Shown here: piece after piece, positions 36,959 to 55,000 of the stretch
Layout of the letters: every line of letters starts with the position of its first letter
Numbering within the stretch: the first letter of the stretch is position 1
Assembly: GCA_000934665.2 (NCBI GenBank)
Contig: KZ538012.1
Coordinates: forward strand, 62,001-126,000
Direction of reading: 5' to 3'
DNA from: Catajapyx aquilonaris
Lineage: Eukaryota
Length of the DNA: 64,000 nt
Program-made: the position numbers and the translations under genes
Notes under the pieces: model-generated
What the model saw: the letters and a program-made list of their open reading frames with translations, nothing else
Database searches by the model: none
What the model was told of the DNA's origin: nothing

Positions 36959-37059
36959 CGGACAGCAGCTTCCTCTTGGCCAACGCCCAGATCGTGGACT
37001 ACCCCATCGTGTACTGCAACGAGACTTTCTGCAAAATCTCCGGTTACAACCGAGCTGAG
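36959..37059 (+). CDS. eag: eag coding exon (probably exon 2), start of PAS: (P)[33 protein letters not shown]
   Basis: Acceptor cttttcag, donor GAG|gtcagt; translation matches Eag PAS. Confidence 0.96.
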
Positions 37060-43000: not shown

Positions 43001-46000
43001 TACGTACCAGCAGGATTAGAGTTACTGCCAAGTTTGACTCTTACAGTTAGCGTTTCAGGCGATGTGAGACCAAAATTCACTCTTACAGACAATATTTATG
43101 CCCTTGGAGATGTAGATGCCCTGTGCCTTGTTCCATTGTTTAATCCTTTATACCTTTCCCTTAGCAGAATCTTCTGCATAATTTATGCTGTTCAGTAAGA
43201 TCCACCTTGTTTCGCAACAAAGTTTCAGCTAGGATATATTGTGGAGGTTATTATTGCAATGCACATATCATATTTGATCGAAATATTTTGTTGACTTATC
43301 AGTACCGGTACAGTACCTTTGGCGATTCCTTTACGGAACGTACTGTACATATGAGTGTGTTTTTTGTATGAAATGTACTGCAATATACATGATCAGTTTT
43401 AACAAATTTGAGACACAGTCAGAGATTCCGAGATATTGAAAATCATCAGCCATGTCCGTCCAGGCCATACCGTTACAATTACCACGTTGAATCCGTACTT
43501 GCCATTGTGACGGTACGGACCCGGTGCCTCACACCACCGGACAATATATAGGCCTATTGCAATTTTCGCTTTTTATCCAATCATGTGTATTTGCATGCTT
43601 TGGCTTCTTTGAGGACATATTTTGTAATCTTCACCATATGTCATTCTAATATGTCAATTTACCGTATGTCGAAGATAGTGAGTGTTTCAGAATGAATTTC
43701 CGTACAAATTTTATTAAAAACAGGTTATATTCGCATTTAATTGAAAGAAAATAAGCTAAATGAAGTGCATCAAAGCGTCGTAATTGTCCTTCGGTCTTTG
43801 CAGTAGTTTGTAGTGTATGAAATATAAGCTGCAGTCATAAAGAATTTGTGGGCTTGTAGTGAATATTATAATATGCAGTAATAACGCATATGAAACTGAA
43901 TCGAAAAAACTACATATGAACAGTAGTTTCCTATGCCTGTTGCAAACCAAAGCAAAGACCGATATGTTTGATCAAGTGTGTAGACCATTGCGATTTGTGT
44001 CGTGACGTCCTTAGAATTTGTCCAGAATATGTCAGCTTCACGAGTGACCCGAGATTGTGTGACATATTTTGCTGTTGCTGCTCATACTACTGATTCTAGC
44101 TGCTGCTGTTGCTGCTGCTGGCGTGGACGTCCTAAAGTTTTTGGCCACTGTTTGTGGGTCGTTTGGCTCGTGTGGCATGAACATTCTTTTGTGGGTTTTT
44201 GCCTAGGTTTTTTTGTGCTGCTGTTTTTGTGTTTTACGAGGGTAACACTCACCCTCTCATGGGGCATGGAGAGGTAACGGATTAAATAAATAAAAAATAA
44301 TAAAAAACAAAATAATAAGAATAATAATAGGGAAAGGAATTTGCTACTCAAAGGGTGGGAACTAACAACGCTCATGTATCCTGATAGATTTCTTCGTAGG
44401 TTTAAGCAAATTCGCCAAGCTGGCCCGATCGGTGACCAGGAGTCGATCGGTGCTGGTGTCGCAATTTTCTTCGCATCTTCCTGCCGTCAAGGAGACGTCC
44501 AAGCAGTCCAACTTAGGCCATGTGAGTATCCTCTTTATTGTAATCCTAGTGTATTATCAGCATACAAGTCCCAAAAAGAAAGTTTTGAAAGAATCGAATT
44601 GGTTACATGCTAGTGAATACAGAAAATGAATGTCTTCCTGGCTTATGAAATCTTCATCATCATAATCATTCATGGTGTTTTCCTAAAAATATTTGGGGTT
44701 GCTAGCGGATAACGAGGAGGTCCTCGCTACCATATTTCGTATGACTAAAATGGACTTGACCAAGTGATACAGAAGTGCTAAATTATGCTAAAACTATACA
44801 CCGGACATTGCATACCGAGTTGCATACTGTATGCAGAAGCCCAACTAAACTTTGGCCAAATATATTCAATAACATGGCATTATATTCAAAGTATACACTG
44901 ATCTATCATTCATGTCACTGTGACACATAAACATAGTACCGTACGTAGTGTTTCAGTATTAGAGTTCTAAAGGGTCTTTTCATGATTATCGGCAGGTTTA
45001 TAACGTCACGTATAGCGTTATTTGAAAGCAGACTCCCTCAATTGATGCCCAGATTCTAACAATATACCTCTATCGGCTACTATGTATGGTTTCAACTCCA
45101 GGGGGCTTTAATTAATACATAAATGTGTGTCTAAAAAGGTAATTTTGCAACCTTGATCTCTTTGCAAGAGACGCGTGGCCCAGTTTTTTTTGGGTGCTAA
45201 AAGGGGTTCGTGATTTGGGGTATGGCGATGTCGTGACTCATGCATCCCACATTATGCTCGCCACTAATTTTACAGTGAGTTTTTTTTTCTTGTCCCCTTT
45301 TGCGAGCTAGCCACTGGACAAACCAAATCGTTTGAATAACGTTGTGCTCAAAGTACACAGGTACTTTGTGATTAGTAAACTGAGGGTGACAGTTAAAACG
45401 GTTTCTTGTGGAGACACACCTCTATCAAATCATTAATTTACCTTTTGTTGACTGCAAATGGGGTTCCATTGGGGCCCTTTATTACGAAACGCTGTTCCTG
45501 CTATTGTTAACTGGTACAAATGTTGTTATAATGGACTTGAAACAGTTTGAAAGAGGTTTTTGCCTTCAAGTATCTATGGGGCTCAAATTGTTTTGGCCAC
45601 TTTATTCTGGTCTTGAAGCAACCCTTCGCACAGGCCCCACGTTGAGCAGGTGTGTGTGTGTTCTTGTCTTCAATAAGGTCTGGGGACGGAAACAGGTGTG
45701 TTACTGTAACTCTGGGGACGTTGACCCAATTGTGGGGACATTTTCGGTCCCCACAGCTTGACCCACGAGAATATCACCGTTACAGTGGGGACATGTCCCC
45801 ACAATTTCGTTTTGCAGGGTTTCACAAAAGTCAATTTCTCTCAGCCTAGGTTACGTAGGGTAGGGTAGGTTAGGTTAGGTTAGGTTAGGTTAGGTTACAC
45901 TCGCTACGAAAAGTTCAGTTTCCACGTCCCCACACCTTAGTGAAGACAGGTCTATGTGTGTGTGAGTGGGAAGGGTTGCTTCAAGACCAGGATAAAGTGA

Positions 46001-49000
46001 CCAAAACAATTATTTTGAGCTCCATAGTACAACAGAATACTAACAATGCTGCTGAGTTTTTCATGGCGAATGATAGCAACTGCAGGTTGTTGAGCTATCA
46101 ACATAGGTCTGCATTGGTCCATAAGGACATCGTTCTGAATCCCTGTAAAATTGTTGGAAAAATGTGGAAAACTGGAAACGGCTCGTTCTCCAACAGCCTT
46201 GGGATTCAATTGACCTATTGGCTGAAAAGGGTGAATATTTCAAAATGGGCCAGCACAATGGACGTATTCTATAGTTTTTCACACGATACTTGCATTGAAC
46301 CACACATTTTTAATAGCTTACATTTAGTCCCATGGAGGGACATTGAGATACCTCAATATTGCTTAAATTTTTTGCTCAATTGCACTGGGGAAGTATTGAC
46401 AATTGGCACCTAGCCACTGACACCAGAGCCAAACGGTGTAACTGGTGTTCTTTTGCCAAAACTACCCAGTGACGTATAGCTAGTTTTTAAAATGTTATTT
46501 TAATTTTTTTTAAAGAAGGGGAGTTGGCGATTGTGAGATGGAAAAGTTGGTGGGCAAACCTTACTCTCTCCTCCCTCTTTCGCTACTAATTTTTCACCTC
46601 TCAACATTCGGCCCTCCTATATAATCAATATTGGGGTTGGGAGTTAGCCCCTACTCCCACCCCGCTTGGATGCGTCACTGGCTCTACCTATAGGCCAAAA
46701 AGGAAGGAATTTTAAAATTCCCAAGGTTCCGGAACCACACGGACCCGACAGTATACAAACTTCCTACAGGACTTCTTGCTGAAACTGATGCAAGGTGTTG
46801 AAAAAAAAAATTGTACACTGGGAAAGTTCAGGTTGAGTGGGTTCCGAGAGACGTAATAAAACATGATTTTATAGTAGATAAAATGCAAAGTTTTAAAGAT
46901 ATTTTACTGATAACAGTACATATTTCTATAGTTTGAGGGATCAAAAACAGACATGTCCACTTTTGTTTGGGAAACGCCATGAAGATGATGATGATGATAA
47001 TGACGTTTGGAATACATACACGCCTAGATGATTTTGTGTTAGGAAGCGAAGGTCAACACTTGCCTTTACCAGGCAATCATTCCTGCATATAAAACCAACA
47101 TTGGCTTGACATTTGAATTAATCGTCATACATGTCCATTGCAGAATTTAGAATCCCCTGTGGTCATGCACATTAAAAAAAATGCGCATCCCAGTATGCCC
47201 GTCTGTTTGAATAGTACTGATGTGTATGTGTAGGTGATGAGCCTGAGTGCAGATGTGACGCCCCAGTACCGGCAAGAAGCCCCGAAGACACCCCCGCACA
47301 TCCTGTTGCACTACTGTGCCTTCAAGGCGATTTGGGACTGGGTGATCCTCTGCCTGACCTTTTACACGGCCGTTATGGTGCCGTACAATGTGGCCTTCAA
47401 GAACAAGACGTCGGAGGACGTGAGCCTGCTGGTAGTGGACTCTATCGTGGACGTCATCTTCTTCATCGACATTGTTCTCAACTTCCACACCACCTTCGTG
47501 GGCCCAGGAGGGGAGGTGGTGTCCGACCCAAAAGTCATCCGCATGAACTATCTCAAATCCTGGTTCGTCATTGATCTTTTGTCCTGCCTGCCTTATGACG
47601 TCTTCAATGCCTTCGACCACGACGAAGATGTAAGTAATTGTTCCACTGCCGACTATGAGGAGAATGTAAGTAAAATCCCTCACCATCCTACCTCTTCTTG
47701 TCTCCTTATTCTCTTCTGTTCCTACACTTCCTTTCGCTCTCTCTAATTCTTTTCCGCCTTTGCCAACACCATTACCCTGGTTTTACCATCTTGTTCCCCC
47801 GAAACGTGCCATCTCTGATCTGCGCTTGAGGCCACACTATCGATTTATAGGCAACGGCATTTTGGTCGGAAACGCGCCAAATGAACTATCCGACGATATG
47901 CAGTAGAATGATGCTGACTCAATTTGTCTCTAAAAGGGATAATTATCCGGGTGAAATTTGAGTCTCTAAATGGAATTTTTGGAATTGGCTGTGTTGCTAT
48001 GAGGTTCAAATGCTCGTTAATATTGTTCTGATAGAGCTTGCAGTGTTATGGCGCAGGAATGTAAGCGATTCGGGTCAGATGGGGTGTTTTTATACCATTC
48101 CACATGCATATAACAACCGAGTTGGCCCATTCCATTGTGGTTAGTAGTGGCAAAGGATTTGGATACATTTTATTTTGATTCTGCTGGACCTGCTGCTCTG
48201 GGCCACTTCTCTCTCTCTCTCTCTTGTAGTCCTGAAGTAGTTCTATCTGCATGGCGCTATTGGCAGCTCATGGCTGTGATCGTTGCATTTTCAAAAACTA
48301 GGTCATCGGCTCTGTGTGTAGAAGAGGAGGCTTCTACAGTACAGACCTATGTATATATGTAAAATCCGTCAATTGAGGTGAGATTGTGCCAGCGCATTTT
48401 TTGGACAACAGTGCGCCCTACCGTGATTTTACTCGTCACCGGATCTGAGTATTCTAAGATCATGATCTTAGAATACTCAGATCCGGTCACTCCCACCCAC
48501 CCCCGCGTTTTGCAGGGGGTGTTCACTTGAGAGCGCCATTAGACATTTCAGAGCACTTCACTGGTACGGTATGTGGCGCCCCTACCGGACTACGCTGAAC
48601 TCTACAGGTACAAAAGGGAAGGGTTACATTGGGGGACCCATCATGGTCGCCGGCGGCCATGTTGGGCCCGCATGTAGCTCTTCCCTTTCGTACCTATAAA
48701 GTTCAGCGTAGTCCGGTAGGGTCGCCACATACCAGTGCTCTGAAATGTCCCATGGCGCTCTCACCTCTCAGGTGAGCACCCCCTGCAAAACGCCCCGGCA
48801 GGCGATAAGATCATAATGTAGTATAAGTATCCGGGGGCAGTTGCCAACCTTAACCACCCCTCAATGTATAAGTAAAACGTGCATAAATTCGCTTGCTACC
48901 AGTTGTTGTTCAAAAATGCGCTGGCACAATCTCACCCCAATTGACGGTATTTTAGAACTGTACAGAAAATTACAATCAGTGATTCTAGAAAATTATTTAT

Positions 49001-52000
49001 TAAAATTGGGAATATTTGTCTTGTTGTTGATGATGCAGTACCGGCACCTCATGCGTGTGCTATAGCATACTGCTCTTTGTTGGAGAGCATCAAATTAATG
49101 ATGGAATTTAATTTCTGAATTGAATTCACTTCAGGCTGTGGCTAATTTGGCAAATGAAGCGTTCTTTGTAATTGAATCCACAGTTATTATCGTGCACTAT
49201 TCATCGATGCAATATAGTTCCTACAAAAGATGTAACAAATATTTGTTATTTGCCAACCCCCATATAGGCCTGACTGCAATTTTTGTTCAATACACTGGTA
49301 CAGATATCAATATTTCCTGAACCTCCAGCGCCCAGTACTACACCCTCTTAATAAATTTGGGCACCCCATAAAATGCAGTAAATCCGTTTTTACCACATTT
49401 TCAAGGACAGGTACGGTGTATCCAGTCCAAGTATTTGCTCTTGGGTGAAACCGAACGAGATCGTAGACTTGGAAGGTTGAGCTAAATAATTCACTTGAGA
49501 CCCCCTGACCTAGTTTTAAAATTCTATGTGCGCAACAGATTCTTATAAATGCCACCTATAAATTGGCGGTATATGACCCGCTGACATAGTGCATATCTGA
49601 TATCGGAGTGGTATAAATGGAGCTTGCAGAAGGATTATAGACTTTGCAGGGTCGTTGTAAGGGCCATACAGTAGGTGGCCTGCTTATCAAAGGATGGATT
49701 TTGTGGCATGGCGTTGAGATTCTGTCGAGCTTATCTGGGAAAGAGGAACCCATTTGACATGGTCTTCATGGGCGGATACTCTCTGGGGGTTCCATGGGCC
49801 ATTGAAAATCATCTCGAGGCTTCGCAGTGAGAGGCGGATGCGGATTACGTCAATGATACTGCTTGTGCTGATCAAAAGAGCAGTGGAAAACTGGCTGGGG
49901 GGGGGGNGGGGGGGATGGAAAAATAGAAGAGAATGAACAGTTTTCGCTGTTGGTTTGCTCTGGGGATTACAAATACTGCAGCAAATTAGACTTCTAGTTG
50001 CGAATCCAATTGCGTGGACCTGCCTACAGTACTGAACAATTTGGCGGAATTCCTCGCAGGACCTGGAGTTGTTTTTTTTTGACTCAGTGAGCTACATAAA
50101 ATGAATTTTTTTGAACTTCTTTGCTGAGCACCATTATGACTTTAATTAAAACGGAATTACATCAAAAATACGGCCCACAAAGGAATGAATGGCTACACAG
50201 TATACCGTATATTACAGTAATATTTATCGTGCCAGTTGAGAGTTGTAACTTTACATTGTCAGTGAAATATAAACACAATATATTTATTGTAGAATGGCAC
50301 CTCATCATGAAATTATCGCAGAGACTAACTCCAATAAGTTCGTCGGAACATTATGAAATATCCTGAATTCTCAATTTTCATCGCTCTAAAATAGACATAT
50401 TTACAGCCTTCTTAAACCATGTCCCAAAAATTGTTTTACCTTTCAAGACAACTCACAGCCTGAGAAACACGACAATTTTCATGATGGAATTCGAGACGCG
50501 CGCGCGACATTTTCCACGACGATAAGGTCTGACTGAGGAGAGCGTGCTTTGCAGCAAAACTTGATGTCAAGGTGACGACGTGAGCAGCTTGTCGATGGGA
50601 GTAAAGTCTTGTATGTACCTTACCAGTGGTTTAACTCCATTCAAACTCGTGCCAGGTCACAGACTAAATCTCTTAAACAAATCACTGCATTAGCCTGGTC
50701 GTGACTGTGGAAAGAATAGGCTCTAAAATACCCGAACATTTTCTTCCACATCATCATATCGTTTAGAAACATTTTGAATTTTAAAAAAACAATAATGTGG
50801 AGTTATGGCACTTTAATTTTTAAATAAGGATGTGGTGTACCGCCACCCTGGCATCATTATGCAACCGGTTTCCGCCAGTCATATTTCTAATCTCATGAGG
50901 CAGTTTTTACTTGTACACTACCTGTCAAGTTAGAACCGTACGTAAATAGGTGACATATTTTTGGGCCAGATATTGATCACGTCATTTATGTCGCTTATCC
51001 CAAAACCTCCACCAATATATAATAAGCTTTTCCTTGGACACCACAACCCGGGCCCTCCTTACACGATCAATAACGATTACGACGATAAACTTTTTATAAT
51101 ACTGTTTACCAACCAGCATCCCAAGGGTCACATGAAATGGAACTGCGCTAATGAACTTTTTAGAGAAACAATTTAAATGCATACTAGAAATCTGTGTATT
51201 TGGGAGCACCACAATATGCTAACTCTAATCACGGAATATTGAACTCCTCTTTCGTGACGTCATTCAGAGAAGCGCCCCCCCCCCCCCCCTTCTTGCTGAA
51301 TGGCTGCAGCTAAGCTTATTTGTGTGCAAAATTATTATCAGGCAGTAATGCAGATCCAGATGGCTAGGCTTGTTGCTCTGTTGGCATGTGACAGGGTAGA
51401 TGATTATTATTTGTAGCCTGATGACATCAGAGCACATTTCGTTTAACTTACACTGCGTCAAACTGGATGCAAAATCGTGTTTAATTTCACGTAACTATAA
51501 GCGACGTGGACAACAAACCGAAAATGCAGCGGAGTTGGAATAATAGTGCTTGAAAATTGACGCTGTGTGGATCAATGAGCATATGGCGTTTTGTATTGGG
51601 AGCCTTTGGAATGAAGAGAGTAGCCTACAGCAGGGATGGGTTGCCTGGTGGTGGGAAAGCAGAATAGCCCTGGAATTAGAAGAGCTTTGTCCTCCGAGCA
51701 TGAATAGAACCAGCCTAATTGATCCTGGCCCCTGCTACCGGTATTTTGTTTGAAGAAATTTAGTGGACTCTCTTGTATGGAAGAACGCAAGATGATTACA
51801 TTCTGCAGTCTCATTTCAAAGAGTGTAACTGGACCGTCCTACCATTTTGAGCTGTACAGTGAACTTATGAATAGTAAATTCAAAAGTTTTTAGATCTGAC
51901 CTTTGCCCCTTTCAAAAGATGTTCTTGCGTGGAATTTTCGACCCATGAGTCCACTCGCGTGGAACACCCATCCGCTCCCCTACCCTCCATTTTTTTTTTC

Positions 52001-55000
52001 CGTGCTCAACCTTTGCCCCGCCCAAATGTTAAATCTTGCCCTCACTTCAAGTTTGCATGATTACGTCAAAATAGCGTGCAATGTTTAAAATGACCTCGCT
52101 TTGCACTCACCTCAACGATTATCGATGACCAGTCGAATTGACTGATGTATTAAATATTATCACGAAGCATCATTAAGGGTGTTTCGTACAGGGATTTCCC
52201 CGGTGCAGGTACTAAAGGGCGGGGTGGTCATATTACTTTGGGCGAATCGCTCGACATGCTTGCACCACCAGTAATTAACTAACAAGAGAGAGTAAGTGGG
52301 ACATCATCACACGTTTCAGACAGGTATTTTTCAGCTTGGGAATGTTCAATCCTAAGCATTCTTGCACCTTCTGTCCTTTCTTAAACTAGTGCTATGCCCG
52401 ATTGCATTACGATATGTCTCTTCTTCACTTTTCGACTCTTTTTATTCTACGAGTAGCCTGCAACAACCTCAATATCTTCTTGTGTTTGTATAAGAAATTA
52501 ACATCCCGCACGTAGATGACGTTGTATTATGTGTACATACCGTACTGTACATACATAGACTGGGATAGCAGTTCCCAGGACACCCGTAGATTAGTCGGTA
52601 ATGAACAAGCACATTTTTGGTAAATAGTGAAAATGATGTCCTCCAGTAATTACGACTGACCCTGCGGCTCCTCGCTGTTTCAGGGCATCGGAAGTCTCTT
52701 TAGTGCTCTGAAAGTGGTACGGCTTCTGCGATTAGGCCGAGTCGTGCGGAAATTGGACCGATACCTAGAGTATGGCGCTGCCATGCTCATTCTTCTCTTG
52801 TGCTTCTACATGCTTGTCGCTCATTGGCTCGCCTGTATCTGGTAAGAATTGCATCGTTGTGCATAGTTTTCGGAGAGAAACACAAAATAATTATTTTTCT
52901 GGGCAGGTATTCCATTGGCAAGACGGATGCAGACAACGGTCTTCAATATAGCTGGTTATGGAAGCTAGCCAATGTGACGCAAATGCCTTACTCCTACATG
53001 ACGTCTGAACACAACACCACAGAGCTCATAAATGGCCCACTGCGGAAAACTATGTATGTTACGGCGCTGTACTACACCATGACGTGCATGACAAGTGTTG
53101 GGTTTGGCAACGTCGCTGCCGAATCAGACAACGAAAAAATTTTCACCATTTGCATGATGATCATAGCAGGTACTAAATCGAGTTCATTGATTTTCTCTTA
53201 CCACTGCAGTGATATATCGTGTGCTCTATGAAAATATTGCCCTATTTCAGCGCTGTTGTACGCCACCATCTTCGGCCACGTGACGACCATTATCCAGCAG
53301 ATGACTTCAGCCACGGCCAAGTATCATGACATGCTCAACAACGTTCGCGAGTTCATGAAACTACACGAAGTGCCCAAAGCGCTCTCGGAGCGGGTCATGG
53401 ACTACGTAGTGTCCACGTGGGCCATGACCAGGGGCATTGACACGCACAAGGCAGTACTATTCTTTCTCATATATAAGATGTATTGTCAGTCTCTACACAA
53501 CACTGTATATAGTGTGTAGGAACTGAGTGTCAACAACACATCTTCACACATGCTTCCGATCTTATAGATACAAGAACACTCAGTGACATGACCATAATGG
53601 CATACATAAATGTCGTTTATCTCTCTTTCTCTTTCTCTACTTCCCTATTATGTACATACTGTTGCTCTTTCATCAATACTACTTGATGTTTTGTGTCGCA
53701 TGTGTGTGAAGTTTGTTGTCGAGAAGTTGGCTCGAACATCAATAAGAAAAAAAAGAGAATCTTGTAGAATTGAAGGGAAATATATTAATTGATAATCTCG
53801 GCGGTTGGCAGGTGCTGAACTACTGCCCGAAAGACATGAAGGCAGACATCTGTGTACACTTGAATCGAAAAGTGTTCAACGAGCACCCAGCCTTCCGACT
53901 CGCTTCCGACGGCTGCCTCCGAGCTCTGGCCATGCACTTCACCATGAGCCACTCTGCTCCTGGTGACCTCCTCTATCACACAGGGGAGAGCATCGACAGC
54001 CTTTGTTTCATCGTCACAGGATCTCTCGAGGTCATACAAGACGATGAAGTGGTTGCCATTCTGGGTTAGTGACCATTCTTCAGTGCTATATTTTGCTACT
54101 GGTCAGTTTCCAGTACACTTTAACATGTTTTAGGCAAGGGTGATGTATTTGGTGATGCCTTCTGGAAAGAACCTGCGGCAGGTCAGTCGGCGGCCAACGT
54201 CAGAGCTTTGACCTATTGCGACTTGCATGGAATCAAGAGAGATAAACTATTGGAAGTGTTAGATTTTTATCAAGCATTTGCCAACTCTTTTGCTCGGAAT
54301 CTAATCCTGACTTACAACCTAAGGCATCGGGTGAGTTTCATAATATTGTCTCGCCAGTTGCAGGAGTGAATATCCATGGTCCTTGTTTCTCCTGCAGCTA
54401 ATATTTCGTAAAGTGGCCGATGTCAGACGTGAGAAAGAACTGGCAGAGCGTCGTAAGAACGACCCTCAACTAGATCAGAATCAGGACCAGTTGGTCCGTA
54501 AGATCTTTTCTCGTTTCCGAAAAAGTACAGGCAGCAGCGAGAGAACCAGTCCAGCAGCCAGCCTGAGCGACTCGCCTACAGGGGCACCTCCTGGTTCGGC
54601 TTCCACTCCAGGAGGTGGTGGCCATTTGGACGTGGAGAGAGGCGATGGAGAAGGCGAGTCCGCCCCATCATCCGCTCCTGTAGCTTCAGCTGCTACCACA
54701 GCTGCCATCAAACCCAGACTCAGCTCTGTCTCAGAGGCTCGGGCACCTGCCAGAGGGAAATGGGGAGCACTTCTATCTGGAGGAGGTGGTGGAGGAGGAG
54801 GAGGTGGAGGGGGAGGAGGAGGCGGCGGGGGCGCCTCTTCGACATCCACTGCTTCGTCCCCTGCTTCCAATGGGAACAAAGTCTTTCCCAAAGCGCCCCG
54901 TTTGGGAGCTGCTCGTCAGCCACAAGAGTCCATAGCAGAAGGTGTAGAAACAGGACACAGCCCAGGGACAGTCAGCCCCGCACCGGTCATACCTGCATTG

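Follow-up and report, generated by a model that had tools for sequence, protein, structure and literature searches.

Tandem in-frame splice donors at the S3-S4 junction of eag in Catajapyx aquilonaris: a probable alternative-donor module shared among mandibulate arthropods

In eag-type potassium channels, the linker between segments S3 and S4 governs the speed of opening and the action of extracellular divalent cations, which are bound by acidic residues in S2 and S3. The linker of the bovine channel occurs in two lengths: bEAG2 carries an 81-nt insertion that adds 27 residues to it and, in the available excerpts of Frings et al. 1998 (PMC2217119), this insert arises through use of an alternative donor that lies within the S1-S3 exon or at its end. 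The same excerpts describe slower activation of bEAG2 (fast-activating fraction 0.12 vs 0.39 at 0 mV) and a greater sensitivity to extracellular Mg2+. The mammalian case is the only splice switch at the Eag S3-S4 linker to have been studied; the variants treated in the excerpts of Ramos Gomes et al. 2015 (PMC4683259) are only the two mammalian ones and Drosophila Eag80, and our search of the open-access literature turned up no account of an S3-S4 splice variant of arthropod eag. Here we describe a probable switch of the same kind in a non-model arthropod. The plus strand of a 64,000-nt stretch of the Catajapyx aquilonaris genome (contig KZ538012.1, positions 62,001 to 126,000; hereafter the window) carries an ether-a-go-go gene (eag), encoding a voltage-gated K+ channel of the Kv10/KCNH1 type, in which the exon for S1-S3 ends with two donors in the same frame. 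To judge from sequence comparison, the second donor is very probably a true alternative 5' splice site whose use lengthens the S3-S4 linker, and we consider it likely that the window holds an orthologous alternative-donor module of mandibulate eag, old and shared, not a new duplication.

The gene was assigned by a colinear match that takes in the PAS region, S1-S6 including the pore, and the cyclic-nucleotide-binding homology domain. With a mayfly eag protein (P0004, Neocloeon eag X3) as query, tblastn finds plus-strand matches that start at 36961 and reach at least 55198, and identity in the conserved exons is 67-97%; the match is ordered and full-length, and the top named matches are all eag. 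Among chains in the PDB, Eag2 and Eag1 match the S1-S3 exon with E values of 3e-68 to 1e-66, and hERG with about 3e-32. The rat and human Eag1 and Eag2 chains, all of them short-linker forms, align with this exon as far as the end of S3.

The core exon (47234..47629, plus strand), defined by translation, tblastn and the PDB matches, runs from pre-S1 through S3 in 132 codons, is in phase 0 at both ends, and closes with DHDED; acidic S2 and S3 stretches are present in its translation, and both align to Eag1. It ends GAC CAC GAC GAA GAT at 47629 and is followed by the proximal 5' splice site GAT|GTAAGTAA (47630..47637, plus strand), which matches 7 of 9 consensus donor positions and translates to V-S-N when read through. 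The alternative exon extension (47630..47665, plus strand) comprises 36 nt, or 12 residues, of which one is Cys, three are acidic and the last is Asn, and ends GAC TAT GAG GAG AAT at 47665; its limits follow from the read-through translation and from its alignment to the mayfly insert. The distal 5' splice site AAT|GTAAGTAA (47666..47673, plus strand), in frame with the proximal one, matches 8 of 9 consensus positions. Past DHDED, the read-through consists of the 12 residues and then VSKIP; no stop interrupts the extension, and the first stop in this frame lies 27 codons past 47629. Identity to P0004 across 47234-47665 is 94.5% (tblastn). A preliminary description of the locus, made from the window alone, had reported duplicated in-frame donors 36 nt apart with no stop between them, and these particulars are exact. 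The intron common to both isoforms, about 5 kb long, lies between the distal donor and the acceptor of the next exon (47674..52683, plus strand); that exon (52684..52843, plus strand; acceptor ...tttcag|GGC), located by tblastn and a relative's RNA contig, encodes S4 and the S4-S5 region through S5.

Inserts at exactly this S3-S4 junction are carried by named eag proteins of many arthropod groups, as became apparent when a protein collection was searched with the exon plus extension, longer proteins were requested, and the junction of every match was printed. Short-type inserts (10-13 aa, starting VS[NSTK]C) are found in the mayflies Cloeon and Neocloeon, the damselflies Ischnura and Hetaerina, the ostracod Cyprideis, the lobster Homarus, the centipede Strigamia, and the millipede Chamberlinius; the amphipod Hyalella likewise has an orthologous insert at the same site. 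Long-type inserts (about 24-36 aa) are found in Timema, Zootermopsis, Blattella, Lycorma, Nilaparvata, and Polyplax. The groups with inserts are thus mayflies, damselflies, stick insects, cockroaches/termites, planthoppers, a louse, crustaceans, and myriapods, and as a sequence feature the module is documented across Mandibulata outside Holometabola. Shared traits are the VS start, one Cys, and an acidic tail that ends mostly in N.

The closest counterparts of the window are those of Cloeon dipterum, Neocloeon triangulifer, Ischnura elegans, and Hetaerina americana, whose orthologous exon is 94-95% identical over 144 aa. Their 13-aa insert occupies the identical site and has one Cys, as in the window; it starts VSNCST in the mayflies, and its tail reads D-Y-D-D-N or D-Y-D-E-N vs D-Y-E-E-N in the window. 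By tblastn, the mayfly insert and the window agree at 9 of 13 positions with a single in-frame codon gap, the window insert being one codon shorter and having E-E in place of D-D. The long-type inserts of Polyneoptera/Paraneoptera share with the window the site, the VS start, the single Cys, the acidic tail, and an in-frame second donor, but are two to three times longer, with the Cys in mid-insert after an Asp instead of at position 4 and a tail of F-D-E-N or F-G-Q-D.

A second search, with the last 42 residues only, yielded many unnamed short open reading frames (ORFs), which are genomic exons read into the intron. These are of two kinds. In one, DHDED is followed by the module and then by V-S again, corresponding to an in-frame GTNAGY donor, beyond which similarity collapses; in the other, which comes from lineages lacking the module, what follows the first V-S appears random. 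The in-frame V-S behind the insert agrees with the expectation that the second donor and its frame would be conserved in relatives. By itself, V-S after a phase-0 exon end indicates a consensus donor only and is no evidence of homology, since the donor of the upstream exon also reads V-S: that exon (44396..44548, plus strand; tblastn with the mayfly protein P0004) ends ...SNLGH, and from 44549 onward the translation continues VSILF.

For 14 hand-picked short-type read-through ORFs, we compared the extension with a stretch of equal length past the second donor; the window's own ORF was dropped because it has too little translated downstream sequence, leaving 13 ORFs and 78 pairs. In this set, which was picked for showing the module and describes it accordingly, mean identity is 0.44 in the extension vs 0.19 past the second donor, with the extension scoring higher in 68 pairs and lower in 2, and 8 ties, and the acidic content is 0.22 vs 0.07. 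The module is marked by the V-S start, exactly one Cys, an acidic C-terminal part ending in N, D or K, and the in-frame GTNAGY that follows; the window shows this pattern, with N at the end, and it recurs in all 14 hand-picked ORFs and in the named proteins. Each of the 14 short-type extensions contains exactly one Cys; in the wider insert set the presence of Cys is partly a matter of selection, as the filter required one. Among the inserts, the Cys lies anywhere between 4 and about 17 residues from the donor, and all length changes are of whole codons. An N-C-S sequon had been listed among the features of the extension; as a key feature it finds no support, since by reading only the window and the mayfly type among the 14 have it, and N-glycosylation as the point of the insert was ruled out on the ground that the sequon is not conserved.

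Annotated isoforms from other arthropods point in the same direction. When the 90%-identity clusters of RefSeq-annotated species were scored at the S3-S4 junction, both forms were found in six species: Cloeon (8 isoforms with the insert, 5 without), Neocloeon (5 and 5), Ischnura (6 and 4), Hetaerina (5 and 4), Nilaparvata (5 and 7), and Lycorma (2 and 1). The Nilaparvata cluster also includes two Laodelphax fragments without the S3-S4 region. Two findings, the annotation of this event in both isoform versions in six other arthropods and the conservation of the extension as coding sequence, lead us to regard the second donor as very probably genuine; the 12-residue lengthening of the linker predicted from the window alone is supported on the same two counts.

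RNA of related animals adds to this picture. Three runs, each holding 5-7% of the sampled words, were aligned to 47150-52950 at 85% likeness, and all three come from relatives (<95% alike); within the intron, their only coverage is an island of 109 nt. A 1247-nt contig of one run (X1, record 1) matches 47234-47673 without gaps and with 36 differences in 440 positions, as expected of a relative about 92% identical; 31 of the 36 are listed at 47275-47578, which leaves at most 5 within 47579-47673. The 30 letters preceding 47234 in the contig translate, by reading, to the ten residues that close the upstream exon in the window, and the contig therefore represents spliced RNA of a relative. Past 47673 follow 176 letters unlike the window, so that the resemblance ends right behind the second GTAAGTAA: a relative whose exon is about 8% different keeps both the extension and the second donor. 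Another contig of the same run (record 3) covers 52684-52844 and is spliced to the following exon. Its end exactly at 52684 was considered as a branch from alternative upstream junctions, an idea that was dropped because the end of a contig proves nothing.

Several points weigh against reading the second donor as a functional switch. No splice junctions across 47150-52950 were found in the three relatives' runs, and none come from this species; the contig that reaches the second donor retains the donor-side intron and hence displays neither junction. The isoforms of relatives are automated predictions (RefSeq/Gnomon or ab initio). Many of the hemimetabolous and crustacean representatives are short forms, and in Cryptotermes none of the five cluster isoforms has the insert. 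Our conservation figures carry an ascertainment bias and are not an unbiased test. The predicted effect on gating is drawn by analogy from a mammalian insert whose sequence is unrelated, and the two mammalian variants are themselves called "very similar to each other" in their properties in the excerpts of Ramos Gomes et al. 2015 (PMC4683259). Given the short forms in many representatives and the count for Cryptotermes, usage of the long form may be low or tissue-restricted.

The resemblance of the two exon ends had been taken in the preliminary description as an exon-end duplication that made something new here. A recent, lineage-specific tandem duplication of the exon end with its donor, producing a new gating switch convergent with that of mammalian KCNH1, would explain the 24-nt direct repeat (47614-47637 vs 47650-47673, spacing 36, 19 of 24 identical) and the identical 8-nt GTAAGTAA in both copies. 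Donors so placed are uncommon in the window: GTAAGTAA occurs 4 times on the two strands of the 64 kb (2.49 expected), the tandem donors are the sole neighbouring pair within 60 nt among 35 GTAAGT sites on both strands, and for any given GTAAGT the rough chance of a neighbour no more than 60 nt away is 0.016, falling to 0.0055 when the two must share a frame. Within 47560-47800, a match to at least 7 of the 9 consensus donor positions is reached by these two GT sites only. The likeness between the copies, however, spans only 16 + 8 of the 36 nt, being limited to the last 16 exonic nt (11 identical) and the 8-nt donor; the first 20 nt are without likeness by reading, so that the similarity over the full 36-nt period by which we would recognize a tandem duplication is missing. 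Many chance two-copy families of comparable length and identity occur in the same 5-kb intron, for which reason the repeat alone argues only weakly for duplication, and GAN codons of acidic residues together with consensus donors would by themselves yield much of the identity. A recent origin is moreover contradicted by the alignable insert and distal donor of mayflies, damselflies, crustaceans, and myriapods, which make the arrangement, common to insects, crustaceans, and myriapods, far older than this lineage, and we regard it as very improbable. Duplication of the S1-S3 exon end and donor in a mandibulate or older ancestor would be compatible with a shared module, and we think it unlikely. 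In many lineages the distal end does mimic the proximal ...F-D-H-D-E-D: among 36 distinct inserts counted by hand, an aromatic F/Y stands four residues before the donor, with acidic or amide residues after it, in 19, including all 15 long-type inserts, which end F-[D/G]-[D/E/Q]-[D/N], and 4 of the 21 short-type inserts, which end Y-acidic-acidic-N, the D-Y-E-E-N of the window among them. Seventeen of the 36, though, are without the aromatic residue, and the same pattern would be expected if the S4 flank must be acidic in both isoforms, as it is when the distal exon end resembles the proximal one. Purine-rich (GAR) exon ends favour donor use and would give this pattern as well, so the likeness of the two exon ends may come from such exon sequence.

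The distal donor could also be a relic or cryptic site, inherited but unused or spliced as noise, with all functional channels of the short-linker form, as apparently in Holometabola. Consistent with this are the lack of junction reads for this species and the apparent loss of the module elsewhere (0 of 5 isoforms in Cryptotermes; no holometabolan representative listed). On the other side, the open frame, Cys, acidic tail, and perfect GTAAGTAA have all been preserved, and the insert differs from that of the mayfly by a clean one-codon indel; in the relative about 92% identical, the likeness extends to 47673 and breaks off there, and where the module is missing, read-through past the first VS has a random look. 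We hold a relic to be improbable. Nor is there much to recommend a purely regulatory arrangement, in which the tandem donors serve splicing control (for instance through U1 recruitment or by kinetically delaying the 5-kb intron) and the peptide does not matter. Two donors of about equal strength do lie close together, and the relative's contig retains this intron with the upstream intron already removed, yet the constraint is seen at the level of the peptide (a single Cys at varying donor distance, the acidic tail, length changes of whole codons) and six species have the long form annotated as a protein; this explanation seems to us barely tenable. The shared, orthologous alternative-donor module is the reading that we retain in what follows.

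Under the shared-module reading, two competing, nearly equal phase-0 donors in one frame and 36 nt apart would set the length of the linker by donor choice. The proximal splice (47629/47630 to 52684) would give the short S3-S4 linker, and the distal splice (47665/47666 to 52684) would add 12 residues to this extracellular part of the voltage sensor. The long form would shift the original DHDED twelve residues away and add three negative charges and a thiol, while the residues adjacent to S4 would remain acidic in both isoforms. We infer that the distal donor is used in this species and that its use is regulated. By analogy with bovine EAG1/EAG2, the longer and more acidic linker would slow activation and shift the sensitivity to extracellular divalent cations.

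The conserved single Cys has no evident extracellular partner. A disulfide with the S3 Cys (in LLSCLPYD) was judged unlikely, by the reasoning that the S3 Cys lies deeper than the cation-binding Asp. Long-range complementarity between the donor region and the intron, of the docking/selector kind, was ruled out, there being no inverted repeat that involves 47600-47700.

The short form, in which a DHEDD-type end is joined directly to GIGSLFS, is the commonest among the homologues. A third search, in which full-length proteins were scored on the S3-S4 region of the mayfly long form, ranked every insert-bearing protein at the top. The short junction is present in 77 of its 80 new representatives, among them those of ants, bees, beetles, flies, spiders, a scorpion, and horseshoe crabs; the remaining three are one without a recognisable motif, one midge model with a retained short intron, and the tick P0425. 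The conserved module was not seen in any holometabolan or chelicerate protein examined. This is suggestive of loss or absence in Holometabola and Chelicerata, to the extent that annotation covers these groups.

Among the chelicerate proteins, those of a scorpion, a spider, and horseshoe crabs (P0427-P0429, P0235) read ...DHDDDQ or ...DHEEDQ directly before GIGSLFS. The tick model (P0425, Hyalomma asiaticum eag) has a different 12-aa insert with one Cys and no VS start, which may be an independent or a diverged version of the same switch. In P0436 (Clunio marinus), P0146, P0178, and P0184, translation crosses a short intron in frame and enters GIGSLFS; these appear to be retained short introns or faulty annotations and do not resemble the conserved module. 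Outside the arthropods, KCNH5-like proteins of the fish Micropterus (P0266, P0418-P0420, P0422) carry an insert of roughly 30 aa between S3 and S4 that has no VS start and replaces the G-I at the start of S4; it is present in all 5 cluster members covering the region and constitutes another linker-length variant in the family.

The intron downstream of the tandem donors contains several features of its own. A 109-nt island (52059-52167), about 520-625 nt upstream of the S4 exon, is present in a 539-nt contig of the relative's run X1, where it is about 90% kept (7 other letters, 4 gaps) between sequences unlike the window on both sides; it is single-copy in the window and may be a conserved element of the intron, or else a small exon or RNA that is not annotated. 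A scan with Rfam returned no family in 47000-53000. Nested inverted repeats (I1-I5) with arms of 28-67 nt that are 88-96% complementary occupy 48361-48952 and form a foldback element resembling a miniature inverted-repeat transposable element. A poly-G run broken by an N lies at 49897-49913, with a poly-C run 1.36 kb downstream at 51275-51289. The window holds 32 N, which mark assembly gaps or uncertain bases in the intron.

At the level of the genome, the locus presents ordinary annotation, an alternative isoform to be expected of a known gene, and such isoforms are already present in automated annotations. What may merit the notice of physiologists is a Cys module that extends through the mandibulates and was apparently lost in Holometabola. 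The locus also illustrates that a donor that looks duplicated can be an old, selected arrangement.

Of the described systems, Drosophila eag, the founding member and the usual experimental model, is the same channel. Dipteran representatives agree with the window at the S3 end and the S4 start, with D-R-D-E-D directly before GIGSLFS, but no insert-bearing isoform is found among the dipteran and other holometabolan proteins listed. The apparent absence of the module from these insects may explain why an arthropod description is missing from the literature searched.

The mammalian KCNH1 a/b pair belongs to the same gene family and resembles the window in the position of the junction, between the acidic end of S3 and G-I-[GS]-S-L-F-S, in the phase-0 intron, in the alternative donor, and in the V-S that results from read-through of the proximal donor; its insert, like that of the window, is extracellular and lies in the voltage sensor. 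Intron position and phase are the same in both genes (...DHDED/GIGSLFS in the window, ...ENVDE/GISSLFS in the mammal). A sea-lion KCNH1 isoform (P0265) carries the 27-aa insert, with a V-S start, between ...ENVDE and GISSLFS, and the read-through ORFs P0256, P0257, and P0324 have the same 27-aa insert site and V-S start. The parallel with the 27-aa mammalian insert that had been drawn from the window alone is accordingly real, as P0265 and the excerpts of Frings et al. 1998 (PMC2217119) both attest. The inserts themselves differ: the mammalian one has 27 aa instead of 12, cannot be aligned with that of the window, has no Cys, and does not end in a markedly acidic stretch. The earlier characterization of the two switches as convergent is possible but unproven: the mammalian and arthropod genes use the same phase-0 intron and the same mechanism, which makes common ancestry of the arrangement as plausible as convergence, although the insert peptides cannot be aligned. 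Read-through ORFs with other S3 ends (e.g. ...QHVDD, ...QDVDE) also continue with V-S and, if these come from non-arthropod invertebrates, as we assume, a phase-0 intron with a GTNAGY donor at this position is general. It is possible, if doubtful, that an alternative S3-S4 donor is ancestral to bilaterian Eag, with a regulated short/long linker switch kept at one phase-0 intron from before the divergence of arthropods and vertebrates, that the Cys and acidic cluster of the arthropods forms a redox, metal or disulfide-partner site, and that the switch was lost in Holometabola; if so, the loss in that group, Drosophila included, would explain how the switch escaped physiological study.

Functional data for a linker splice pair come from mammalian KCNH1 only. 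Beside that pair, the comparison now places a mandibulate module that is widely conserved, strictly retains its Cys and acidic tail, and is seemingly absent from Drosophila and other Holometabola; the module would offer a natural pair of isoforms for testing how linker length, charge, and a lone extracellular thiol act in Eag gating.

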